Below, in pieces: positions 2,802 through 37,952 of a stretch of DNA of 38,058 nucleotides. The position numbers were made by a program, and so were the translations under genes. This stretch comes from Rhodoferax sp. Its GTDB lineage: Bacteria > Pseudomonadota > Gammaproteobacteria > Burkholderiales > Burkholderiaceae_C. Location of the stretch: assembly GCA_017880985.1 (NCBI GenBank), contig JADGRK010000001.1:1-38058 (forward strand). The letters run 5' to 3'. The first letter of the stretch is position 1, and every line of letters begins with the position of its first letter. The notes beneath the pieces were generated by a model that was not told where the DNA came from, ran no database searches, and saw only the letters and a list, made by a program, of their open reading frames with translations.

Positions 2802-3095
2802 ATGAACTTGCCAGAACGCGACGGCGATGGTTACCTGACCGACATGGGCACGTGGACTGAAGAGGTGGGTCGCGCCATGGCTCAGGCTGACGGGTACGAC
2901 CTTGATGATGTCAAGTGGTCGCAAATCTTGAAGGCCCGCGCCTACTACGAAGAGTTTGGCAGCGTTCCCCCGATTAGAAAATTTGCAAAATACCTGGGGG
3001 AAGACCAAACCAAAGTGTTCAAACTCTGGATGACGGGCCCGATGAAGCCCATCACCAAGTACGGTGGTCTTCCAAAGCCGACGGGCTGCGTTTAG
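2802..3095 (+). CDS. TusE/DsrC-family sulfur relay protein with only the penultimate Cys
   Basis: DGDGYL..W N-terminus; GLPKPTGCV C-terminus; the second (CysB) position is not Cys; RBS GAGG. Confidence 0.85.
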   Translation: MNLPERDGDGYLTDMGTWTEEVGRAMAQADGYDLDDVKWSQILKARAYYEEFGSVPPIRKFAKYLGEDQTKVFKLWMTGPMKPITKYGGLPKPTGCV

Positions 3096-3110: not shown

Positions 3111-3494
3111 TCAGATGTAGTGTTTGGATGCCCGTCGCCGCCCTGGCAACGCTTTTTGAATGATGACACCGCGCACAGCTGCCAGATCGGGAATCGGTGC
3201 ATCGGCAAAAGCCGGGTTCAGTGGGTGCAACACCCAGCCGATGGTGGCGCGCAGCAGTTGCCTGAAAGTCCATTCCTCTTGATGCCAAGCCAGCACGTAG
3301 GAACCGTCTTTGGTTAAGCCCTCCGGCTCGATGATGATGATTTCACCTTCCAGAAACTCTGGAGCCATGCTGTGTCCAAGCACCATCAGCGCAAAAGACT
3401 CGCCGCCTGCACAGTCGGGCAGCAGCGTGCCGGGTGCCGGGTTTGACGCATCGGCATAGGCGGCTGCGGCGGGGATGGAACTTGGTGGATGCAT
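3111..3494 (-). CDS. Stand-alone S24 (LexA/UmuD-type) peptidase-like domain
   Basis: FALMVLGHSMAPEFLEGEIIIIEP and LHPLNPAF motifs; no N-terminal HTH. Confidence 0.75.
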   Translation of the reverse strand: MHPPSSIPAAAAYADASNPAPGTLLPDCAGGESFALMVLGHSMAPEFLEGEIIIIEPEGLTKDGSYVLAWHQEEWTFRQLLRATIGWVLHPLNPAFADAPIPDLAAVRGVIIQKALPGRRRASKHYI

Positions 3495-3521
3495 GTCTGA
3501 TCGGTCCTCAGGGGCAACAAA

Positions 3522-4997
3522 TCACAGCACCAGGGTAAAAATTTGGGCTGCTGCCACGCCTGACGAACGCAAGTCTTCATGCAATGTGCGGATGAAGTCG
3601 GCAGGCCCAGCCAAATAAAAGTCGCAATCAATGCCAAACAGGTCAGCTCGCATCGCCTGCGCAATCTGCCACGCGCCCAGCGAGGCATCCGCTTGCGTCA
3701 CCAATTCATATTCAAACTGGTCCAATGCCTCAGACCAGGCTCGGCATTGGTTGCTGAAAAAATGACCGTCGCTGCGCGTCGCGAGCCAGAAAAGCGAAAG
3801 AGAAGGTGCATCATCGAGCGACAGGGCCTGCTCGATCAAGCTTTTGACGGGTCCAAAACCACCGTCACAGGCCGCAAATACCAAGGGTCGATGCCCGCCT
3901 GCCAACACAAATTCACCTGTCGGTCCCAAGACGGTGACGATTGTTCCGGGTTGAATGTCGCCATCAAACAAGCACCGGGCAAACCCATCAGCCTCATCCC
4001 GGCTAACAAAAAACAGCAAATTGTGATCGTCACAGGGGCAACTGGCGATCGGGTAAATGACGTGGACATCGTCTTGCCCAGGCATTGTCCAACCCAATTG
4101 CACCGACTGACCGGCCAGAAAACGCAGTCGATGGGTACGTGGGGTCTGCAGGTGCAACAGGCGGGTGTCGGGTGCCAGCACAGTCAATGCGCGCACCCGA
4201 GTTGAAATGTGCTGCTCCGGGATGTCTTGAGGACCACTGGCTTCAAGCAACTCCAGCGTCAGTTCACTGCTGGCCGCTGTATGGCAGCACATCAGGACGT
4301 ATCCTTGGGACTTTTCGGTTTCTGACAGGGTGTAGTCGAAGTGCTGTGTCTTGGCGACCTCGCCAGAAATCACGCGAACCTTGCACATGCCACAACTGCC
4401 ATTGCCACAACCATAGTTGAGTTTGAGTCCTGAGTGCAAACCTGCCTGCAACAGATTGGCACGGCCCTCCACGGCAAACTCATGTCCACTGGGTCGCACC
4501 GTGACCTGTGCCGTCATCACCTTGAGCATATCGTCCATGACTTCCAGCATGTTGACCGAATCGGTGGCCAGCGCTTGCGCGAGCCCTTGGGTGATCTGCT
4601 GTTCCAGTGCAAGCCAATTGGCCGCACCAGGTTGTTGGGCAAGTTGTTGCCTCGCCTCTTTTTGCAGCCTGATGACCAGCGCATGGTAACGCTGCAGATG
4701 CCGGCGCACGTCGGCGAGTTCCTGACTTTGCGCAAACAAGCGTTGCGCCAACACTTCCTGGCTTGGCAACAGCCGCTCACGCACCCGTTTGCCAAAGGCT
4801 TCATCGCGAATCTTGACCACCCGCTCAAGCATCCCGGACTCTTCCAGCCGAGCATCGGGGTAGAGCCGCAGCAAGACGTCGGTTGAGACCCAGCCGTCAT
4901 TCAAAACCAAGGTGCCATCGCGCACCTGCTGCTGCAATACGCCGCGTGCCACCCCCAGTAACTGAGCGGCGCGCCAAACGCTGACTTGGTGGCTCAT
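3522..4997 (-). CDS. HTH + coiled-coil + [2Fe-2S] ferredoxin + FNR-type reductase multidomain protein
   Basis: N-terminal AAQLLGVARGVLQQQV (HTH-like); CGNGSCGMC...C ferredoxin motif; FLAGQ, GPTGEF, YLAGP reductase motifs; ATGA overlap with upstream gene. Confidence 0.75.
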   Translation of the reverse strand: MSHQVSVWRAAQLLGVARGVLQQQVRDGTLVLNDGWVSTDVLLRLYPDARLEESGMLERVVKIRDEAFGKRVRERLLPSQEVLAQRLFAQSQELADVRRHLQRYHALVIRLQKEARQQLAQQPGAANWLALEQQITQGLAQALATDSVNMLEVMDDMLKVMTAQVTVRPSGHEFAVEGRANLLQAGLHSGLKLNYGCGNGSCGMCKVRVISGEVAKTQHFDYTLSETEKSQGYVLMCCHTAASSELTLELLEASGPQDIPEQHISTRVRALTVLAPDTRLLHLQTPRTHRLRFLAGQSVQLGWTMPGQDDVHVIYPIASCPCDDHNLLFFVSRDEADGFARCLFDGDIQPGTIVTVLGPTGEFVLAGGHRPLVFAACDGGFGPVKSLIEQALSLDDAPSLSLFWLATRSDGHFFSNQCRAWSEALDQFEYELVTQADASLGAWQIAQAMRADLFGIDCDFYLAGPADFIRTLHEDLRSSGVAAAQIFTLVL

Positions 4998-5974
4998 GAT
5001 ACGCTATAGTTTAAATAGCTGCCAACGCCCGTCAAAGAATGACTACAGGCATTTTTAGCATTATTCTCAACGGCTCTGACAGAGTCCTGGACTTGCGTTG
5101 GCTTGACGATACGATCCAGATAGCGTGCGCGATACAGCAGTCGGGGCTGACTCGGATCGTCGTCGAAGCCCGCGCGGTTATGCAGCACGTTGTTACAGAC
5201 CAGTCCCATGCCGGGCTGTAGCCGCAAGCGAACGATGTGAGATGAGTCGTTTGACAATAACTGCTCAAGAAAGCCCACCGCATCCCGTGTGGCCGTATCG
5301 CCTTTCCATAGCACGCTACGGGTACGGGCCGTGTAGCGCATATGCAACTCACCAGTTTGTGCGTCCACCGAGAACACCGGTCCGGCCTGCTCAGCGCGGG
5401 CGATGCCGTCTTCGTCCAGCCGCTCCGGAATGGTCATGGCCTGCGGAGCCATCAGCGCGCGCACCCAGTCGGGATTGGCGTCTCTTATAGCGATGTACGC
5501 CATTTCATGATCCATCAAGGCAGTCTCACCGCCGTGGCTGGCCTGGCGCACGCAATGCAAGGTCATGGCCCGAATTTGGCGCGTTTCGGGGTGGTAGTAG
5601 CCGTCGGTGTGCCACTTGATAGGTCGGTTGGTGTACGGAATGAAGGCGGCGCGGTCGCCCACCGGCCTGGACACGGCAATCCGAGAGATACCGTCTTCGT
5701 CGGCCAACCAGTTGCCATCAAGCCGGTGCGAGCCCAGTTGACTGGCTAACTGCCGGGCAATATCTTTGTCTTCGGCATGAGCCGGGCTGCGGTAAATGGC
5801 CATATTGCTGCTTGCGCATCGCTCCAGCAAGGCTTGGCGCTCACGGGTCTGCAGCGCTCTTGGGTCTGCCACATCGACAATCAAATCGGATGCCTGCCGC
5901 GGCTGACACGCCAATTTGGCATCACGCCAGCGTTGGTAGGCGGTGGGGCAGGCAAGGTCAAATGGGGTGGTCAT
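4994..5974 (-). CDS. TauD/TfdA-family Fe(II)/2-oxoglutarate dioxygenase
   Basis: WHTDG (HxD) and NNVLHNR (distal His) facial triad, R..R..Y C-terminal motif. Confidence 0.8.
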   Translation of the reverse strand: MTTPFDLACPTAYQRWRDAKLACQPRQASDLIVDVADPRALQTRERQALLERCASSNMAIYRSPAHAEDKDIARQLASQLGSHRLDGNWLADEDGISRIAVSRPVGDRAAFIPYTNRPIKWHTDGYYHPETRQIRAMTLHCVRQASHGGETALMDHEMAYIAIRDANPDWVRALMAPQAMTIPERLDEDGIARAEQAGPVFSVDAQTGELHMRYTARTRSVLWKGDTATRDAVGFLEQLLSNDSSHIVRLRLQPGMGLVCNNVLHNRAGFDDDPSQPRLLYRARYLDRIVKPTQVQDSVRAVENNAKNACSHSLTGVGSYLNYSVS

Positions 5975-6597: not shown

Positions 6598-6610
6598 GAT
6601 TTACGATGTG

Positions 6611-6658
6611 TTGGGGACAGAGCTGGTTCGCTTCGCGTAACTGCGGTCTGTCCCGCAA
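6611..6658 (-). repeat. 48-nt dispersed hairpin element, copy A
   Basis: ttggggacagagctggttcgcttcgcgtaactgcggtctgtcccgcaa; gggacaga(6614-6621) pairs with tctgtccc(6647-6654); 44/48 identical to 32633-32680. Confidence 0.9.
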
Positions 6659-6662
6659 AGCT

Positions 6663-6992
6663 TCAATACCCGCCCTTGCCCAAGGGCTGCGGCAACGCGG
6701 CTACTTTGGGACCTTGCTTGGCTGGCCCGATGGGGAACAGGTCATAGAGATACTTGCTGTCCACCTCGGGACGAATCTCAGTCATGCCCTTGAGCATGTT
6801 GCGAAAACTGGGGGTATGGCCGTGCTCGCGGTATTGGTTACGCAGGTAGTTCACGACTTCCCAGTGCGCATCGGTCAAAGTAATGTTTTCAGCCTGTGCA
6901 ATCACCCGCACAGCTTCATCGTCATACAGCGGTTCCAGCAAAAAACCCTGTTCATCGGCTTCATATTCAGTGCCGTTAATGTTGTAGCCCAT
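6663..6992 (-). CDS. Cysteine-less DsrC/TusE homologue (RspA-type)
   Basis: DEQGFL, LTDAHWEVVNYLR and YLYDLFPIGPAKQ closely match DsrC; the protein contains no Cys and ends LPQPLGKGGY. Confidence 0.85.
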   Translation of the reverse strand: MGYNINGTEYEADEQGFLLEPLYDDEAVRVIAQAENITLTDAHWEVVNYLRNQYREHGHTPSFRNMLKGMTEIRPEVDSKYLYDLFPIGPAKQGPKVAALPQPLGKGGY

Positions 6993-7023
6993 CTAACGTC
7001 TCCATTTCAGTTAAAAAATCTGT

Positions 7024-7638
7024 TTACACCGCTGCCGCGGACTTGTGAGGTATAAAAATCCCGCAACCAAGCAGTCGATGGCGTCCGATACCCTTGTGTT
7101 GCAAGCGCAGTGATTGATCCGGTGGCAGAGCATGCAACATCAGGCTAAAAGTGTTCACGACCCCATCTGTCACGCTCAGCACTTGACGTTTGCCACAAAC
7201 CCGCTCGCCGCCAATGCCCAGTTCAGCCAGCTCGCGCTCCGCCGCTGCCATGAAAACCACTTCATTCTCACTGTCTGCGGCTACCTTGTATGCATACAAG
7301 GTCGTGTGCGGTTGCAGTTCCCGCAGGTGTGCGGTCCCGAGGTGCAGCCGCTGGCCTGCCACCATCAGGTCTAGACCGGCCAGCGTACTCAATTCTTGTG
7401 CACGCTGGGTTGGCACCCGCAGTAACAATAGCGAACGCCGGGACAGCAAAGCCGGACTGTCGCTGCCAGGCACGAGCTTGATTGGATGGATGCCGACGTG
7501 GGCATCCGTCTCTAGCCAAGGCATTTGCAGGCACAAAGTCTGCCTTAACTCGTGGGCATGGTCGCGCGCCAGATATTGCCCCTCAATTGGAAAAACGACG
7601 TCAACCGCTTCATCATCCTCATTTTGAACCTGCGTCAT
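7024..7638 (-). CDS. cas6: Orphan Cas6-family (Cas6/Cmx6-like) RAMP endoribonuclease
   Basis: C-terminal Gly-loop GIGRHRLLGCGIF (GhGxxxxxGhG); N-terminal DVVFPIEG..L..DH; GIHPI; SLRLQ..GIG; start moved to ATG 7638, 2 nt after the upstream stop. Confidence 0.8.
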   Translation of the reverse strand: MTQVQNEDDEAVDVVFPIEGQYLARDHAHELRQTLCLQMPWLETDAHVGIHPIKLVPGSDSPALLSRRSLLLLRVPTQRAQELSTLAGLDLMVAGQRLHLGTAHLRELQPHTTLYAYKVAADSENEVVFMAAAERELAELGIGGERVCGKRQVLSVTDGVVNTFSLMLHALPPDQSLRLQHKGIGRHRLLGCGIFIPHKSAAAV

Positions 7639-7640
7639 GA

Positions 7641-7874
7641 TTAATCCACCATGGGCGGTTGCGTCGGCGCTTGAGTTTGCGCCCAGCGCAGCAATGCCTC
7701 GCCCCAAAGCCGTGCCGATTGGGGGTCAATTTCAAATACAGTGAAACGGCTTTTTTCGCGAATGCGCGTACGCAGCAAGCTCATGCCACCGCCAGCGTAG
7801 TCCAATTGCTGCAATTCGATAACCTGCCCGCCCAGGGGAATGATCAATTTTTCAAGCGGCGTAATGGTGGTCAT
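7641..7874 (-). CDS. Small hypothetical protein (77 aa), first gene of the accessory operon
   Basis: Abuts cas6; beta-rich then helical pattern (LLRTRIREKSRFTVFEIDPQSARLWGEALLRWA). Confidence 0.65.
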   Translation of the reverse strand: MTTITPLEKLIIPLGGQVIELQQLDYAGGGMSLLRTRIREKSRFTVFEIDPQSARLWGEALLRWAQTQAPTQPPMVD

Positions 7875-7913: not shown

Positions 7914-7995
7914 ACTGTGTCGGATTCATGCGGGTAGTGCGTCAAGCAAACTGCCCCAACCAGTATTGGGCGCAATCAAAGGCGGTGCCGTCTAT

Positions 7996-8055
7996 TACCG
8001 GGAAGGGTTGGACGGTATAGCCCAAATGGGTAGCACCCAATACTCAACGAGGGGG
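7996..8055. promoter_or_regulatory. Phased TACCCAT-type operator array upstream of dsrA
   Basis: Core 8017-8035 atagcccaaatgggtagca is 18/19 identical to the reverse complement of 26072-26090; degenerate neighbours at 7996-8010 and 8041-8055. Confidence 0.6.
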
Positions 8056-8185
8056 ATAGCGTCATGGGCGTCCCGCGACCTACCATTTGCGCTAGAGTTG
8101 ATCAAGAAGTGCCCCCAGAGGCAAGCCATCAACAAAGCGGGTTTGAACGTTCGGCGCAGCCCCTGCGCCACCTGACAGGAGACAC

Positions 8186-9478: not shown

Positions 9479-9492
9479 AGCTCTGTCCTCAA
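9479..9492 (+). repeat. Half-copy of the dispersed hairpin element (agctctgtcctcaa)
   Basis: Exact reverse complement of 32592-32605; lies in the dsrA-dsrB spacer. Confidence 0.7.
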
Positions 9493-9517
9493 TTTATCAA
9501 GAAACAGGAAGACAAAA

Positions 9518-11753: not shown

Positions 11754-12086
11754 ATGAGCTTTGAAATTAATGGCAAGACCTATGAAACGGACGAAGAGGG
11801 CTACCTGCTGAACCTGGCGGAATGGACCAAAGATGCGGCCGAACACATGGCCGAAGAAGAAAAGGTTCCTTTGACAGACAGCCACTGGGAAGTCATCAAT
11901 TTCCTGCGCGAGTACTACAACGAGTACCAGATTGCACCGGCCGTGCGCGTGTTGACAAAAGCCATTGGCAAGAAGTTTGGCGCGGAAAAAGGCAACAGCA
12001 AATACCTGTATGACTTGTTCCCTTACGGGCCGGCCAAACAGGCTTGCAAGATCGCCGGCCTGCCCAAACCGACAGGCTGCATTTGA
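11754..12086 (+). CDS. dsrC: Canonical DsrC
   Basis: Both C-terminal cysteines (ACKIAGLPKPTGCI, C-x10-C); position after dsrEFH. Confidence 0.97.
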   Translation: MSFEINGKTYETDEEGYLLNLAEWTKDAAEHMAEEEKVPLTDSHWEVINFLREYYNEYQIAPAVRVLTKAIGKKFGAEKGNSKYLYDLFPYGPAKQACKIAGLPKPTGCI

Positions 12087-17625: not shown

Positions 17626-18849
17626 ATGAAAATCGTTTGGCGTGAATTGCAGGGTACTCAGCGCGGCTACTACCAGCTTTTGTCTGGCTTGGCACTGGTC
17701 ATCCTGCTGGGTATGGGGGCTGTCCTGTACACCGAGCACCATGGTCACATTGTCACGGGCATGAACAATCAGTTTGTTTGGGGACTGCCCGACGTGTTTT
17801 CCATGTTTTTGATGCTCTCTGCCGCCGGGGCGCTCAGCTTGGCACTGCTGGCTTCGGTCTTCGGCAAAACAGAATTCAAACCGGTGGCACCGTTGTCGGG
17901 GGTGCTGGCCATCGCGCTGCTGATCGCCGGGTTGACGCTGTTGATGCTCGATCTGGGGCGACCTGACCGCGTGATCGTTGCCATGCTGCATTTCAACCCC
18001 AAGTCGGTGTTGGCGTGGAATCTGATGCTTTATTCGGGTTTCGTGGCTTTCGTCGCTCTCTATTTGTGGACCCTGCTTGAGCACCGCATGAATCGCTACA
18101 CGCCGTGGGCGATTTCTTTTGCCTTTATCTGGCGTGTCGCCTTGACCACTGGAACCGGTTCTATTTATGGTTTTCAGGTGTCCCGTCAGGCTTTTGACTC
18201 AGCCCTGCTGGCACCGATGTTCATCGCACTCTCCCTGAGTTACGGTCTGGCGGTATTCGTGCTGGTGTTGATGTTGACCTGCCAGGGCAATGACTGCCCG
18301 TTGGGCGATGCCATGATGGCACGCTTGGCGCGCCTACAAGTGATCTTCATTGCCGTCGGGGCCTACTTTGTGCTGGTCTATCACCTGACCAATCTTTACT
18401 TCACCAAGCACTACGATTTTGAACGGTTTATTTTGTTCGAGGGTGGCATTTACAGCACCTTGTTCTGGTTCGGCGAAGTCTTGCTGGGCAGCATCCTGCC
18501 GCTGGTGCTGCTGCTGCACCCCAGGATTGGTCAAATGCGTCAACGCATCGTCGCAAGCACGGCACTGGTGGTACTAGGTGGTTTCGCCCAGTTGTATGTG
18601 ACCATCATTGGCGGTCAGGCGTTCCCGCTGGTGCTGTTCCCCGGCCGCCAGGTCAGCAGCAGTTTTTACGACGGCGTGGTCAATAGCTACACGCCCTCCC
18701 TGCCCGAGTGGCTGCTCGGCTTTGCCGGCTTGGCCATTGCGGGCCTGATCGTCATGCTTGCGCTCAAATTGTTTGGCTTTCTGCCGGATCGACTCGATGA
18801 CGCGGCGTTTGAAGTGAGTCTGACCACACCAGCAGTTGCTACGATCTGA
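17626..18849 (+). CDS. dsrP: DsrP (NrfD-family membrane protein)
   Basis: TGM..QFVWGLP, DLGRPDR, many TM segments. Confidence 0.92.
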   Translation: MKIVWRELQGTQRGYYQLLSGLALVILLGMGAVLYTEHHGHIVTGMNNQFVWGLPDVFSMFLMLSAAGALSLALLASVFGKTEFKPVAPLSGVLAIALLIAGLTLLMLDLGRPDRVIVAMLHFNPKSVLAWNLMLYSGFVAFVALYLWTLLEHRMNRYTPWAISFAFIWRVALTTGTGSIYGFQVSRQAFDSALLAPMFIALSLSYGLAVFVLVLMLTCQGNDCPLGDAMMARLARLQVIFIAVGAYFVLVYHLTNLYFTKHYDFERFILFEGGIYSTLFWFGEVLLGSILPLVLLLHPRIGQMRQRIVASTALVVLGGFAQLYVTIIGGQAFPLVLFPGRQVSSSFYDGVVNSYTPSLPEWLLGFAGLAIAGLIVMLALKLFGFLPDRLDDAAFEVSLTTPAVATI

Positions 18850-18862
18850 AACGGTGTTGTGC

Positions 18863-20620
18863 ATGTCACGTGTTTTGGTTTCAGCGGCGCATAAATCGTC
18901 CGGCAAGACCACCATTTCGGTGGGTTTGTGTGCGGCACTCAGAGCACAGGGTCTGACGGTACAGCCTTTCAAAAAAGGGCCGGATTACATTGACCCGATG
19001 TGGCTGAGTCAGGCCAGTGGACGCGACTGCTTCAACCTTGACCCTTACCTGATGACGCCTGAGCAGATCAGAGCCTGTTTCACACACCATGACGCGCAAG
19101 CCGACATCAGCATCGTGGAAGGCAATAAAGGCTTGTACGACGGGCTGGCGCTGGACGGCAGCAACAGCAATGCGGCGCTGGCTGAGTTGCTGGAGCTGCC
19201 GGTGGTACTGGTGCTCGATGCGCGCGGCATGACACGTGGCATCGCACCATTGATTCTGGGTTATCAGGCGTTTGATCCACGCATTCGCATTGTTGGTGTC
19301 ATTCTGAATCAATTGGGCGGGGCCCGACACGAATCCAAACTGCGCGCCGTGATCGAGCATTACACCGATGTCGCGGTGCTGGGCGCGATTGCCCAGGACT
19401 CGCGTCTGGCACTGGTGGAGCGCCATCTGGGTCTGATGCCAAATCAGGAGTTCGACGATGCAGCCCAGCACATATTCATGATCGGACAACGCATTGCCGA
19501 GCAGGTTGATTTGGCCAAAATAACGCAATTGGCCGCAAGTGCGACACCTCTGCCCGAATTGTCGCGCTGGATGCCACCAGTTTCCGACATTGTGCCGGTC
19601 GCCCCCAGTCCATCGGTGCGCATAGGGGTGGTTCGCGACAAGGCGTTTGGCTTTTACTACCCGGATGACATGCTGGCATTGCAGGCGGCGGGCGCAGAAT
19701 TGGTTCCGGTCGACGCGCTTAAAGACCCCGGTCTGCCCCCGCTGGATGGTCTGTTTATTGGCGGTGGTTTCCCCGAAGTGTTCATGTCTGAGTTGCAGGC
19801 CAACTCGGCTCTGCGCAACAGCATTCGTAGCGTTATTGAGTCCGGACTGCCAGTGTATGCCGAATGTGGTGGCTTGATGTACCTGGCACGCACGCTACGC
19901 TGGAAAGACACGGTTGCGGATATGGTGGGTGCATTGCCGGTGGATGTCGTAATGCATGAGCGTCCGGTGGGTCGCGGCTATGTGACGTTGCAAGTCACGG
20001 CGGATGCGCCTTGGGCCAGCGCCGCAGGCGATGCCCCACAAACGCTGCGTGGGCACGAGTTTCACTACTCCAGTCTGGAAAATATGTCGCCTGACCTGAA
20101 ATTTGCCTATCGGGTCGTGCGAGGTCATGGCATTGACGGTCAACGCGACGGCATTGTCTGCCGTAATGTGTTGGCTTCTTATGCGCATCTGCGCAGCGGT
20201 GCCGGCTCCGATTGGGCCGGACGCTTTGTTGACTTTGTGCAAAGGCACAAAAGCGCAGGTGGGTTGCCATCAGCGACATCGGTGCGTACCTTGCTGGTCA
20301 ATGGCCAGCCGGTGACGACCGATGTAGAAGGTTATCTGAAAAATCTCGACGAGTGGTCTGAAGACTTTGCGCGCAGCCAAGCGGAATCTGAAAATCTGGT
20401 GTTGACTGAAGCTCATTGGCAAGTCATCAGCTTTTTACGTGCCTATTTTGAAGAGTACCGGGTGCAGGCGCAGGTGCGTGCCATGATCCGGCACTTTTCA
20501 AAGGTTTGGGGACCAGAATTGGGCAATAATCACTATTTACATACGCTTTTCCCGATGGGTGGGCCGCAGAAGCAAGGCAACCGTTTGGCAGGTCTTTTAA
20601 AGACCAAGGGCGAACATTAA
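18863..20620 (+). CDS. dsrN: DsrN siroheme amidase fused to a C-terminal Cys-less DsrC-like domain
   Basis: SSGKTT, FKKGPDYIDP, VEGNKGLYDG, AECGGLMYL, GHEFHYS; from ~20282 a DsrC fold (TDVEGYL, LTEAHWQVI, LFP.GGPQKQ); start moved to ATG 18863. Confidence 0.9.
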   Translation: MSRVLVSAAHKSSGKTTISVGLCAALRAQGLTVQPFKKGPDYIDPMWLSQASGRDCFNLDPYLMTPEQIRACFTHHDAQADISIVEGNKGLYDGLALDGSNSNAALAELLELPVVLVLDARGMTRGIAPLILGYQAFDPRIRIVGVILNQLGGARHESKLRAVIEHYTDVAVLGAIAQDSRLALVERHLGLMPNQEFDDAAQHIFMIGQRIAEQVDLAKITQLAASATPLPELSRWMPPVSDIVPVAPSPSVRIGVVRDKAFGFYYPDDMLALQAAGAELVPVDALKDPGLPPLDGLFIGGGFPEVFMSELQANSALRNSIRSVIESGLPVYAECGGLMYLARTLRWKDTVADMVGALPVDVVMHERPVGRGYVTLQVTADAPWASAAGDAPQTLRGHEFHYSSLENMSPDLKFAYRVVRGHGIDGQRDGIVCRNVLASYAHLRSGAGSDWAGRFVDFVQRHKSAGGLPSATSVRTLLVNGQPVTTDVEGYLKNLDEWSEDFARSQAESENLVLTEAHWQVISFLRAYFEEYRVQAQVRAMIRHFSKVWGPELGNNHYLHTLFPMGGPQKQGNRLAGLLKTKGEH

Positions 20621-24090: not shown

Positions 24091-24789
24091 TCAGACTTTG
24101 GTCTCTTTCCCGACCGCGTCGATCGCCCTGGCCCCGTCCGGTGAATGTTGGTACTCAAACGAAAATACGGCTGCTTCGACCCGTGACCGCAAATTTAGTT
24201 TGCCCATGATGTGACGCACATGCAATTTGACCGTGTTGTGGCTGATATCAAGCGCCTTGGCAATGACCTTGTTGCTCTGACCACTGGCTACATGCTCAAG
24301 CACCTGGCGCTCGCGTTCGGTGAGCGTGGCCACCAGACTGCCCATGGCAGACCCCTTGGGACCAGACTGGAGAATTTGCGCAAATTTCAGCATCATGGCC
24401 GGGGCCACGACCATCTCGCCACGCGTCACCCGACTGATCGCGTCAATGATTTCTTCGGGCTCCATATCCTTGAGCAGGTAGCCCCGGACTCCGGCCCGCA
24501 GTGCGGCCGACATATCGTCCTCGCTGTCACTCATGGTAAGGATGACGACCGGGATATCGCATCCATCCGCGCGGATCATGCGCAGCACACTTAAACCGTC
24601 GGTTTTTCCCAGACCCAAGTCCAGCACCATCAGGTCGGGCTGGTGTTCGCGCAACATCGACACCACCAGAGCCGGGTCACCGGTGGCCGCCACGACGGAC
24701 ACGCCGCCACGATGATCGAGCAGATCGGTCAGGCCACTGCGACACAGCGCATGATCATCCACCAGCATCACCCGCGGCTTGGCGTTCAT
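24091..24789 (-). CDS. NarL/LuxR-family response regulator
   Basis: LVDDH, phospho-Asp in VLDLGL, GYLLKD, LTERE...GQSNKVIA..L.IS.NTVKLHV. Confidence 0.93.
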   Translation of the reverse strand: MNAKPRVMLVDDHALCRSGLTDLLDHRGGVSVVAATGDPALVVSMLREHQPDLMVLDLGLGKTDGLSVLRMIRADGCDIPVVILTMSDSEDDMSAALRAGVRGYLLKDMEPEEIIDAISRVTRGEMVVAPAMMLKFAQILQSGPKGSAMGSLVATLTERERQVLEHVASGQSNKVIAKALDISHNTVKLHVRHIMGKLNLRSRVEAAVFSFEYQHSPDGARAIDAVGKETKV

Positions 24790-25994
24790 GTGGAGCCCTT
24801 CGCCAACGCAGAACCAAGCGGAAGCACCAGGCGTACCAGGGTGCCACTACCATCATTCCCGCCGACCTCAAGGGTACCGCCCAGGCGCCGAGCGCGGCTC
24901 TGCATAATTTCCAGCCCAAGATGGGTGGATGGCACCAGCTCACGCGCCATGGTCACAATGGTTGACACCGACGGCTCATCCATGCCCAATCCATCGTCCT
25001 CAATCAAAAACTCCAGGCCCTGGGGCGACTTGTCAATGGTCACGACGGCATGCCGGGCCATCGAGTACTTCGCGATGTTGGCCAATGTTTCCTGAACAAT
25101 GTGAAAAACCTGAACCTCCTGTTGGTCAGTCAGGTCCAGCTTGGGGGCCAAATTTTTCAATTCAAGTTCAATGCCGGTTCGGTTAAAAAATCCGTCTGCA
25201 AGGCCCTGAAGTGCGTGCAGCAGTCCCATCGGGTCCATGCGGGTGCGAAAGTATGTCATAACCTCACGCAAGTTGTCATGAACCTCACTCACGGCGCTTT
25301 TGACATCAGAAAAATACTTGAGCGATTTCTGATCGTCGTGCGCCAGTATGGCGTCACTCAACAATGGCAAACGCATCCTTGCGTAAGCCAAGGTCTGCGC
25401 CAGAGCGTCATGCACCTCATTGACCATTTCCTGGCGCTCCTTCATGACCGTCGTGCGCAACCTCTCGCGCTCAATCTTGGCATTATGCAGTGCCTGACCA
25501 AGCAGCTGCCCAATCAGGCGCAACAGCGTCTCCATCGTCGCGTCGACATGTGCTTGGGCATCAAAAAACAAATTGTAAATCCCAAGCACTTGATGCCCGT
25601 AGGGCAGCGATATGGCCAACACACCCCGGCATTGCGCACCAAAATAGACTTGCGTGTGACGTGCGGCGCAAGACGCCACATCGTCCACCCAGCCGATCAC
25701 GTCCTTGCTGACGGCGAGCCCGCACATACCACAATTGGAATCAACCAACTGCTCGGACGCCAGCACATCCGCCGGCAAGCCTTGCTGCGCTACCAAGCGC
25801 ATTGAGTGTCCGTCATCCGTCAGAACCCGTACCGCCCCGGCTTGCGCCCCAGCCAACGCAACAATGGGAATCAAAAAACGCGCCAACAGTGACTCCAGAT
25901 CACCAGGGTTGGCAAGGTCAGTTGTCAATGCGGCGGCGAGCAGATCCGCGTCCACAGAAGTTGCAGAGGTGAGCGTGGCAGAAGTTGAAGACAT
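24786..25994 (-). CDS. Soluble GAF-domain NarX-like (HisKA_3) sensor histidine kinase
   Basis: H-box ERQEMVNEVHDALAQ, QETLANIAKYS, IEDDGLG, HLGLEIM; no TM helix; ATGA overlap with the regulator. Confidence 0.88.
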   Translation of the reverse strand: MSSTSATLTSATSVDADLLAAALTTDLANPGDLESLLARFLIPIVALAGAQAGAVRVLTDDGHSMRLVAQQGLPADVLASEQLVDSNCGMCGLAVSKDVIGWVDDVASCAARHTQVYFGAQCRGVLAISLPYGHQVLGIYNLFFDAQAHVDATMETLLRLIGQLLGQALHNAKIERERLRTTVMKERQEMVNEVHDALAQTLAYARMRLPLLSDAILAHDDQKSLKYFSDVKSAVSEVHDNLREVMTYFRTRMDPMGLLHALQGLADGFFNRTGIELELKNLAPKLDLTDQQEVQVFHIVQETLANIAKYSMARHAVVTIDKSPQGLEFLIEDDGLGMDEPSVSTIVTMARELVPSTHLGLEIMQSRARRLGGTLEVGGNDGSGTLVRLVLPLGSALAKGST

Positions 25995-26071: not shown

Positions 26072-26140
26072 TGCTACCCATTTGGGTTATTACCACTTAC
26101 CCGTGTCGGTTATAGACGGGCCGGGTACCCGTGTATCTAA
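26072..26140. promoter_or_regulatory. Phased TACCCRT operator array between kinase and sat
   Basis: TACCCAT-T-TGGGTTA at 26075, TACCCGT-G-TCGGTTA at 26098, TACCCGT at 26126. Confidence 0.6.
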
Positions 26141-32569: not shown

Positions 32570-32591
32570 AATGGGGAACTCCTTTAATCAG

Positions 32592-32715
32592 TTGAGGACA
32601 GAGCTAGCGAACATCCAACATCTGACGATCACTTGGGGACAGAGCTTGTTCACTTCGTGTAACTGCGGTCTGTCCCACAAGGTATTTTGGTTGGTAGCTG
32701 CGGTCAGTCCCGCAA
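32592..32715 (-). repeat. Nested double copy of the dispersed hairpin element
   Basis: Outer left arm 32592-32605, full 48-nt copy B 32633-32680, outer right arm 32698-32715; fills most of the hdrC-hdrB spacer. Confidence 0.88.
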
Positions 32716-37913: not shown

Positions 37914-37952
37914 CTACCCATAGGGACTAGCGGGGCTACCCATTCGGAGTAT
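37914..37952. promoter_or_regulatory. Phased TACCCAT operator pair upstream of the qmo-hdr operon
   Basis: TACCCAT-A-GGGACTA at 37915 and TACCCAT-T-CGGAGTA at 37937 (22 bp apart); 37935-37952 is 15/18 identical to 26073-26090. Confidence 0.6.

Follow-up and report, generated by a model that had tools for sequence, protein, structure and literature searches.

A CRISPR-less Cas6 at the reverse dsr locus of Rhodoferax and a dispersed hairpin repeat that is likely unrelated to it

RESULTS

Gene content of the locus

The window analyzed here is a stretch of 38,058 nucleotides from a Rhodoferax sp. assembly (2.78 Mb, 74% complete). A profile scan of its proteins identified a reverse dsr cluster, sat-aprBA, and a qmo/hdr-type operon. 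Divergent from dsrA lies an operon with the order DUF6967 gene, cas6, cysteine-free DsrC paralog, a gene for a helical 202-aa protein, and dsrQ. These genes are listed in Table 1, together with a set of palindromic boxes and the copies of a short hairpin-forming element. DsrC-like sequences occur four times within the window by tblastn cross-hits (2802-3095, 6663-6992, 11754-12086, and 18836-20620), one of them being a region inside the long dsrN ORF. The operon continues beyond dsrQ (3111-4997, minus strand) with a 491-aa Fe-S/FAD/NAD reductase, which carries an N-terminal extension of ~160 aa outside Pfam families, and then a stand-alone S24 peptidase domain; synteny of both genes extends to many Comamonadaceae and Thiobacillus loci.

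Table 1. Coordinates of genes, boxes, and element copies in the window
Feature	Position	Strand	Basis or context
TauD-like dioxygenase DsrQ	4994..5974	-	PF02668; name after a passage of PMC7596348
Conserved all-helical protein, 202 aa	5989..6597	-	Structure model, pLDDT 89
Full element copy, likely a recent insertion	6610..6658	-	5 nt past the DsrC paralog's TGA; next ATG 13 nt on
DsrC/TusE-family paralog, no cysteine, KGGY end	6663..6992	-	TIGR03342; translation
Orphan Cas6, Cmx6/type I-B lineage, 204 aa	7024..7638	-	TIGR02807 above cut-off; predicted structure
DUF6967 small protein, 77 aa, first operon gene	7641..7874	-	PF22295, 91.6 bits
Three phased palindromic boxes, core CCC-N4-GGG, 23 bp apart, upstream of dsrA	7994..8056	+	Box in 90/94 cas6-dsrA spacers
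Decayed 3' half of element between dsrA and dsrB	9479..9493	+	Element match
Element mosaic (5' half, full copy, 3' half) between hdrC and hdrB	32591..32715	-	5 nt after TGA, 22 nt before ATG

A Cas6 protein without a CRISPR system

The cas6 gene at 7024-7638 is the sole PF09559 gene of the assembly. Its product scores 193 bits against PF09559 (cut-off, 26.7) and 144.8 bits against the Cas6/Cmx6 model TIGR02807 (cut-off, 98.85), and the predicted structure (pLDDT 91) has the double ferredoxin/RAMP fold and C-terminal Gly-rich loop of the family and matches chain B of 8FCU (TM 0.86; rmsd 1.9). Fold, Gly-rich loop, and an Asp-His motif near the N terminus are shared with type I-B/MYXAN Cas6/Cmx6 proteins (TIGR02807 and PF09559; type I-B CAST Cas6, 8FCJ/8FCU chain B). 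The family comprises 396 clusters at 50% identity, to E 1e-30.

The window protein keeps His27 and the Gly-loop residues G183, G185, G191, and G193. A sequence-only reading of this stretch had claimed a Cas6-like gene with intact Gly-loop and N-terminal histidine and with neither other cas genes nor an array in 38 kb; the family scores, the residues, and a scan of 40 window proteins, which matched no further Cas family, confirmed this. The cas3, cas8, cas7, and cas5 genes of type I-B/MYXAN systems were not found beside cas6 in the window scan, and the 102 cas6 loci that we collected show dsr genes instead. Across the whole 74%-complete assembly, no cas1, no cas3 above cut-off, and no Cas7/DevR were found, and a crude 20-mer periodicity scan detected no CRISPR array. 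The Cas6 is CRISPR-less within this assembly, an absence that reaches only as far as the completeness of the assembly.

We compared the dsr-linked proteins (the query and 101 loci) with more distant members of the family. His27 is present in 90% of the dsr-linked set, in which R74, R188, and the Gly-loop are also kept, while the histidine is replaced by tyrosine in 28% of 149 distant Cas6 representatives. With these residues conserved, the dsr-linked Cas6 may still bind or cleave RNA. The clade-specific residues W41, H51, R68, E126, C148-G149, and H198-K199 are conserved among these representatives, at positions where the CRISPR proteins differ. The core of the dsr-linked proteins has a median net charge of 0 (pI 7.3) versus +5.5 (pI 9.35) in CRISPR-lineage Cmx6, the latter represented by six cyanobacterial plasmid proteins, one of which (L107) has no annotated cas genes nearby. 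To judge from the sequences, basic charge is much reduced relative to CRISPR Cas6, and the surface is altered. In a tree of 29 rows, which was midpoint rooted and had a small outgroup, the dsr-linked Cas6 proteins formed a clade separate from the six plasmid proteins (support, 100/99). The dsr-linked proteins differ from type I-B/MYXAN Cas6, then, in lacking a cas operon or array, in their fixed dsr neighborhood and separate clade, in a shorter loop around C148-G149, in newly conserved residues, and in being near-neutral rather than basic.

cas6 is tied to dsrA

Of 251 genomes of the family, 23 carry PF09559, and these were taken together with 57 evenly spaced negatives. dsrA was present in 23/23 cas6-positive genomes and in 0/57 cas6-negative ones. 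By Cas6, the nearest relatives of the window are Rhodoferax, Polaromonas, and further Comamonadaceae records. A divergent dsrA lies within 1.2 kb of cas6 in 93 of the 102 loci. Neighbors were counted on 101 loci, L101 being left out as broken: the cysteine-free DsrC paralog adjoins cas6 downstream in 96 and the DUF6967 gene lies directly upstream in 87, while the gene for the helical 202-aa protein, and often also the TauD-like dsrQ, follows further downstream. Distances between Cas6 proteins follow those between DsrA proteins (Spearman 0.63; 81 loci), and in four orthologue pairs the synonymous codon changes in cas6 at least equal the non-synonymous ones. In a phylum-wide draw, cas6 was found in 3/3 further dsrA-positive genomes of the same class and in 0/42 from other classes, so that Dsr systems of other classes, reverse or otherwise, do without it. 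The gene is a fixed neighbor of dsr and, on this pattern of occurrence, likely a repurposed accessory of sulfur oxidation.

In one 2.2-Mb genome, G311, a long distance separates cas6 from dsrA, and no DsrC paralog occurs within 1.5 kb of cas6. By-eye annotation of this locus (L168, C11:1194672-1198259) shows an orphan cas6 with a thioredoxin-like gene behind it and rnc-era-like genes in divergent orientation.

The DsrC paralog next to cas6 is presumably RspA-like. Having no cysteine, it cannot carry a persulfide, and its tail, K106-G107-G108-Y109, is invariant in 49 sequences. It resembles the DsrC/TusE/RspA family, as described in passages of PMC8477390, in its family HMM match and fold, and differs from it in the missing cysteine and the invariant KGGY tail. 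In the Thiobacillus/Sulfuricella loci (L048-L103), an insert of ~900 nt with an extra ORF separates the KGGY paralog from the helical protein; by its N terminus, we take this ORF to be rhodanese-like. The helical 202-aa protein itself had no Pfam or NCBIfam match, only unnamed atlas clusters, no Foldseek hit, and no PDB sequence match. Its best fold match was a bacterial homolog of the assembly chaperone Cbp3 (6RWT; Z 9.3, rmsd 4.5, 160 residues aligned), a weak match in a range common for helical bundles. This likeness to Cbp3 would fit a maturation module, but it is only a lead.

A tauD-like dsrQ divergent from dsrA has been described before (Lenk et al. 2012, as cited in PMC7596348), and the published gene is like that of the window in being TauD-like, opposite to dsrA, and upstream of the dsr cluster; the passage on dsrQ in PMC7596348 makes no mention of cas6, DUF6967, the KGGY paralog, or the helical protein. 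A full-text literature search, with supplements outside its scope, retrieved no description of a dsr-linked Cas6, and subscription literature may mention the gene. The passages on cas6 in PMC5728499, PMC10952691, PMC5944118, PMC8889020, and PMC3632139 concern ordinary CRISPR systems.

A palindromic box beside sulfur genes

The palindromic boxes upstream of dsrA recur elsewhere in the assembly. Five strong hits were obtained, all intergenic and beside sulfur genes, which makes the box more sulfur-specific than the hairpin-forming element. One precedes dsrA, two precede the qmo/hdr operon, one lies between cysB and tusA, and one is in the gap that separates sat from a sensor kinase-regulator pair. 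The further copies lie at window positions 26074-26090 and 37914-37952 and at G000:C359:6702. The CCC-N4-GGG boxes are phased at 22-23 bp and occur in either orientation to the gene. On the minus strand at 24091-25994, divergent from sat, the window encodes a GAF histidine kinase and a NarL-family response regulator (24091-24789). This regulator was found in 23/23 cas6-positive and 0/37 other genomes. The phasing, the indifference to orientation, and the co-occurrence with the regulator point to a DNA operator, and for these same reasons the box ranks below that reading as an RNA target of Cas6. We regard the box as a likely, putative transcription-factor operator of a sulfur regulon and the NarL-family regulator as its candidate activator.

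A hairpin element scattered over the genome

The sequence-only reading had also placed a recurring hairpin at three sulfur-operon sites of the window, on the mRNA strand, after a stop codon and before the next start. The positions proved correct, with co-transcription inferred from gene spacing. As to recurrence, the full copy at 6610-6658 folds (-20.4 kcal/mol; z -2.9), as does the full copy in the hdrC-hdrB mosaic (z -3.6), whereas the 56-nt stretch at the dsrA-dsrB half copy does not (z +0.6). Similar remnants occur in some Rhodoferax loci. An Rfam scan of the window gave no match to E=1.

A profile built from 62 full copies was used to search the 2.78-Mb assembly, and it retrieved 114 copies at 92 loci on 77 contigs; the 15-mer of the element gave 93 matches versus 0 for a reversed control. 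Only two of the 92 loci fall inside genes called by a simple in-house caller, the rest being intergenic. The three sites in 38 kb compare with 1.26 expected [P(≥3) = 0.13], so that the window carries the element at the background density of the genome, with no enrichment. To survey its surroundings, 40 loci were drawn at random from the 76 outside the window with both neighbors called, and the 80 flanking genes were annotated. In 38 of these 40, the flanking genes were non-sulfur genes, among them rpoB-rpoC, dnaN-gyrB, pheS-pheT, tig-clpP, rpmA-obg, leuD-leuB, trpA-accD, sucA-sucB-lpd, pstB-phoU, and tal/zwf; the two sulfur-related loci were cysB-tusA (sense) and soxX-soxB (antisense). The element thus sits mostly in housekeeping operons. 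A nuclease aimed at it would hit the rpoBC and dnaN-gyrB transcripts as much as those of dsr.

Between co-oriented genes, the element is sense at 48 of 63 loci and antisense at 15 (p = 4e-5), that is, ~76% sense or ~3:1. This bias is real but not absolute. A processing system of Cas6 and hairpin, as proposed in the sequence-only reading, would have the element enriched in sulfur operons and invariably sense; the 2/40 sulfur-related loci, the 15/63 antisense copies, and the window density (p = 0.13) speak against this. Proximity to stop codons is a general property of the element: of 45 co-oriented sense loci, 20 start 4 to 6 nt past a stop codon, and where a gene on the opposite strand faces the element, 11 of 24 loci end 4 nt away from the stop of that gene. 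The earlier observation that the hairpin begins just after a UGA is explained by this habit.

The structure of the element is conserved. A cGNAg triloop, typical of stable single-stranded DNA hairpins, is kept in 48 of 62 full copies, and compensatory changes were found at 6 of 18 predicted pairs (22 copies). The inner stem combines compensatory changes with a G-U pair that is workable on one strand only. Together with the sense bias, these features make an RNA-level role of the element plausible.

The element is decoupled from cas6 in relatives

Relatives were searched with the 15-mer arm, allowing at most one mismatch. Among the 22 other cas6- and dsrA-positive genomes, there were no matches in 13, 1 to 5 in four, 13 in two, and 57 to 100 in three. 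Two of the 57 genomes lacking cas6 and dsrA, G033 and G081, gave 31 and 16 matches, with 25 and 6 full hairpins, respectively. No full hairpin was found in the complete cas6-positive genomes G122 and G178, and the complete genome G162, of the same genus as the window, has a single one, antisense between dsrB and dsrE. Element-rich genomes (at least 10 matches) make up 5/22 of the cas6-positive and 2/57 of the cas6-negative genomes (Fisher p = 0.016), a comparison in which the genomes belong to 3 versus 2 genera and are non-independent by kinship.

At the locus level, the element occurs in 15 of 102 cas6 loci, 22 of which span only ~3.5 kb, and the copies inside dsr transcripts are divided between sense (7) and antisense (7). 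None of the 102 related loci has it at the junction behind the DsrC paralog, where the window carries its full copy, and the junction is without it in 4/4 aligned orthologues (L025, L026, G162, and G236), two of them at 80 to 83% Cas6 identity. In relatives, the same spacer is short or filled by other repeat families. A second, unrelated GC-rich repeat family occupies it in L019, L020, L027, L031, L035, L038, and L040 (other Comamonadaceae), which marks the spacer as a hotspot for small repeats.

These counts bear on the central claim of the sequence-only reading, that the hairpin is the sulfur-mRNA target of Cas6, and the claim fails on them: the hairpin is absent from 13/22 cas6-positive genomes, abundant in 2/57 cas6-negative ones, and found at the junction in 0/102 loci. 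That reading had itself named absence of the hairpin from other dsr-cas6 genomes as evidence against it, and the 13 genomes without a match include complete ones. Its alternative, a generic REP/MITE family, gains support from the dispersal of the element, its housekeeping loci, its antisense copies, and its decoupling from cas6.

A likely REPIN/TIR-type repeat and its candidate mobilizer

Passages of Di Nocera et al. 2013 (PMC3733652) and of PMC6006769 describe a GGGGWSAS motif in the inverted repeats on either side of TIRYT tyrosine transposases, with some of these repeats forming families of dispersed dimers. On the opposite strand, the 3' arm of our element reads GGGGACAG, or GAGGACAG in the T variant, and fits GGGGWSAS as given there; the 5' arm has one mismatch to it. 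In line with TIR/REPIN-type repeats, the element is dispersed, multicopy, and intergenic, has inverted arms, and shows both filled and empty orthologous sites.

The one Y1 transposase of the assembly passes NF047646, and TCTGWCCCCAA-type motifs flank the gene and its orthologues in element-rich genomes. These flanks hold short related motifs, but a full element was absent from the surroundings of all 9 Y1 genes examined. The transposase gene (L001 278-973) is single copy, lies upstream of gltB, has short terminal inverted repeats, and is syntenic in 4/5 element-rich relatives.

As far as the TIR families of TIRYT transposases are described in passages of PMC3733652 and of Quentin et al. 2018 (PMC6006769; subclass 2.1), the element shares with them and with REPINs the dispersed intergenic inverted-repeat doublets and clusters, a GGGGWSAS-like arm, a patchy high copy number, closeness to stop codons, and a related motif beside a Y1 transposase. 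It differs from them in lacking a GTAG tag, in its imperfect arms, inner stem, and cGNAg loop, in its 3:1 sense orientation, in having no full copy beside the transposase, and in belonging to no Rfam family. The classical REP 5' foot, GTAG/GTGG, is absent from the consensus of the 62 full copies. As a MYXAN CRISPR repeat, the element was rejected: its likeness to one was no better than that of shuffles, with no match within 10/36 substitutions. From these comparisons, the element is likely a non-autonomous, mobile REPIN/TIR-type repeat unrelated to Cas6, and the Y1 transposase is a likely candidate for its mobilizer. The repeat adds a new member to an already known kind of element.

DISCUSSION

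Collectively, we consider it quite probable that two things overlie each other at this locus. One is a CRISPR-less Cas6, fixed in the operon divergent from dsrA and likely an accessory of sulfur oxidation; the other is a hairpin repeat found throughout the genome, likely mobile and probably unconnected with Cas6. The repeat would be moved as single-stranded DNA by the Y1 (HUH) tyrosine transposase and land just behind stop codons. By analogy with REPs, it would act on mRNAs only generically, plausibly on their decay. The copy at 6610-6658 would then be a late arrival on top of an older, repurposed Cas6.

As to what that Cas6 does, the reading we favor, at just under an even chance, is a protein-level one. 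Cas6 would no longer be a repeat-processing nuclease and would instead use a remodeled surface to form a small module with the co-inherited cysteine-free DsrC, DUF6967, and the helical protein, by which the Dsr machinery is tuned or matured; the KGGY DsrC paralog may serve as decoy or adaptor. In evolutionary terms, we lean towards an early capture of a CRISPR Cas6 by the reverse-Dsr pathway in Gammaproteobacteria (including Burkholderiales); the protein may now regulate sulfur oxidation post-transcriptionally or at the protein level, in a dedicated module with the cysteine-free DsrC as a decoy.

A possible, clearly less probable reading is that the dsr-linked Cas6 still binds or cuts RNA as a regulator, but with another conserved target, such as a structure in dsr coding sequence, a leader, or a small RNA. 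The complete Cas6 fold (TM 0.86 to 8FCU_B), the conservation of His27 (90%), Gly-loop, R74, and R188, and the strict co-occurrence with dsrA would all suit such a regulator, and the CCC-N4-GGG box could fold into a stem of 3 to 5 bp with a 4-nt loop. The box is the conserved candidate, yet its phasing, its use in either orientation, and its company with the NarL-family regulator point to DNA; no motif is common across lineages in four spacers (dsrA-B, B-E, H-C, and C-M) or after the DsrC paralog; and the basic charge of the protein has been lost. Far less probable is the model from which the analysis started, in which a domesticated Cas6 processes or stabilizes sulfur mRNAs at the hairpin. Three sense-strand sites in the sulfur operons of the window, the genome-wide sense bias and conserved structure, and the nominal enrichment of the element in cas6-positive genomes speak for it. 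They are outweighed by an element that is missing from most cas6-positive genomes and present without cas6, sits mostly in housekeeping operons including rpoBC and dnaN-gyrB, runs antisense at soxX-soxB and in half of the dsr-operon copies of relatives, and does not fold in its dsrA-dsrB half copy. What stands of that model is a Cas6 that is CRISPR-less and tied to dsr (dsrA in 23/23 versus 0/57 genomes); what falls is the hairpin as its sulfur-mRNA target.

The least probable reading, to which we give hardly any weight, is that Cas6 works in trans for a CRISPR system encoded at another site or else is a relic in decay. The protein scores above the equivalog cut-off of TIGR02807, the assembly is incomplete (74%), and a cas1 match was found in 8 of the 22 other cas6-positive genomes. 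The remaining 14, however, including the complete genomes G022, G122, and G178, have none; the presence of cas6 follows dsrA and not cas1; and the tracking of DsrA distances over 81 loci (Spearman 0.63), like the balance of synonymous and non-synonymous changes in the four orthologue pairs, argues against decay or a distant employer.

The repurposed Cas6 is a variant within a known protein family, and a Cas6-hairpin system is unsupported. The negative result removes the hairpin as the obvious Cas6 substrate, so that in vitro work need not be spent on an ordinary repeat. In sulfur oxidizers, "type I-MYXAN Cas6" labels in databases are misleading on this view. The box and its co-occurring regulator offer a directly testable sulfur regulon, and the five-gene accessory operon of sulfur oxidation is unstudied and can be deleted in culturable dsr bacteria. 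A Cas6 lineage whose distribution mirrors that of dsrA, and not that of CRISPR, is a clear candidate for the takeover of a Cas protein by metabolism and, if this is true, would be a Cas protein domesticated by core energy metabolism.
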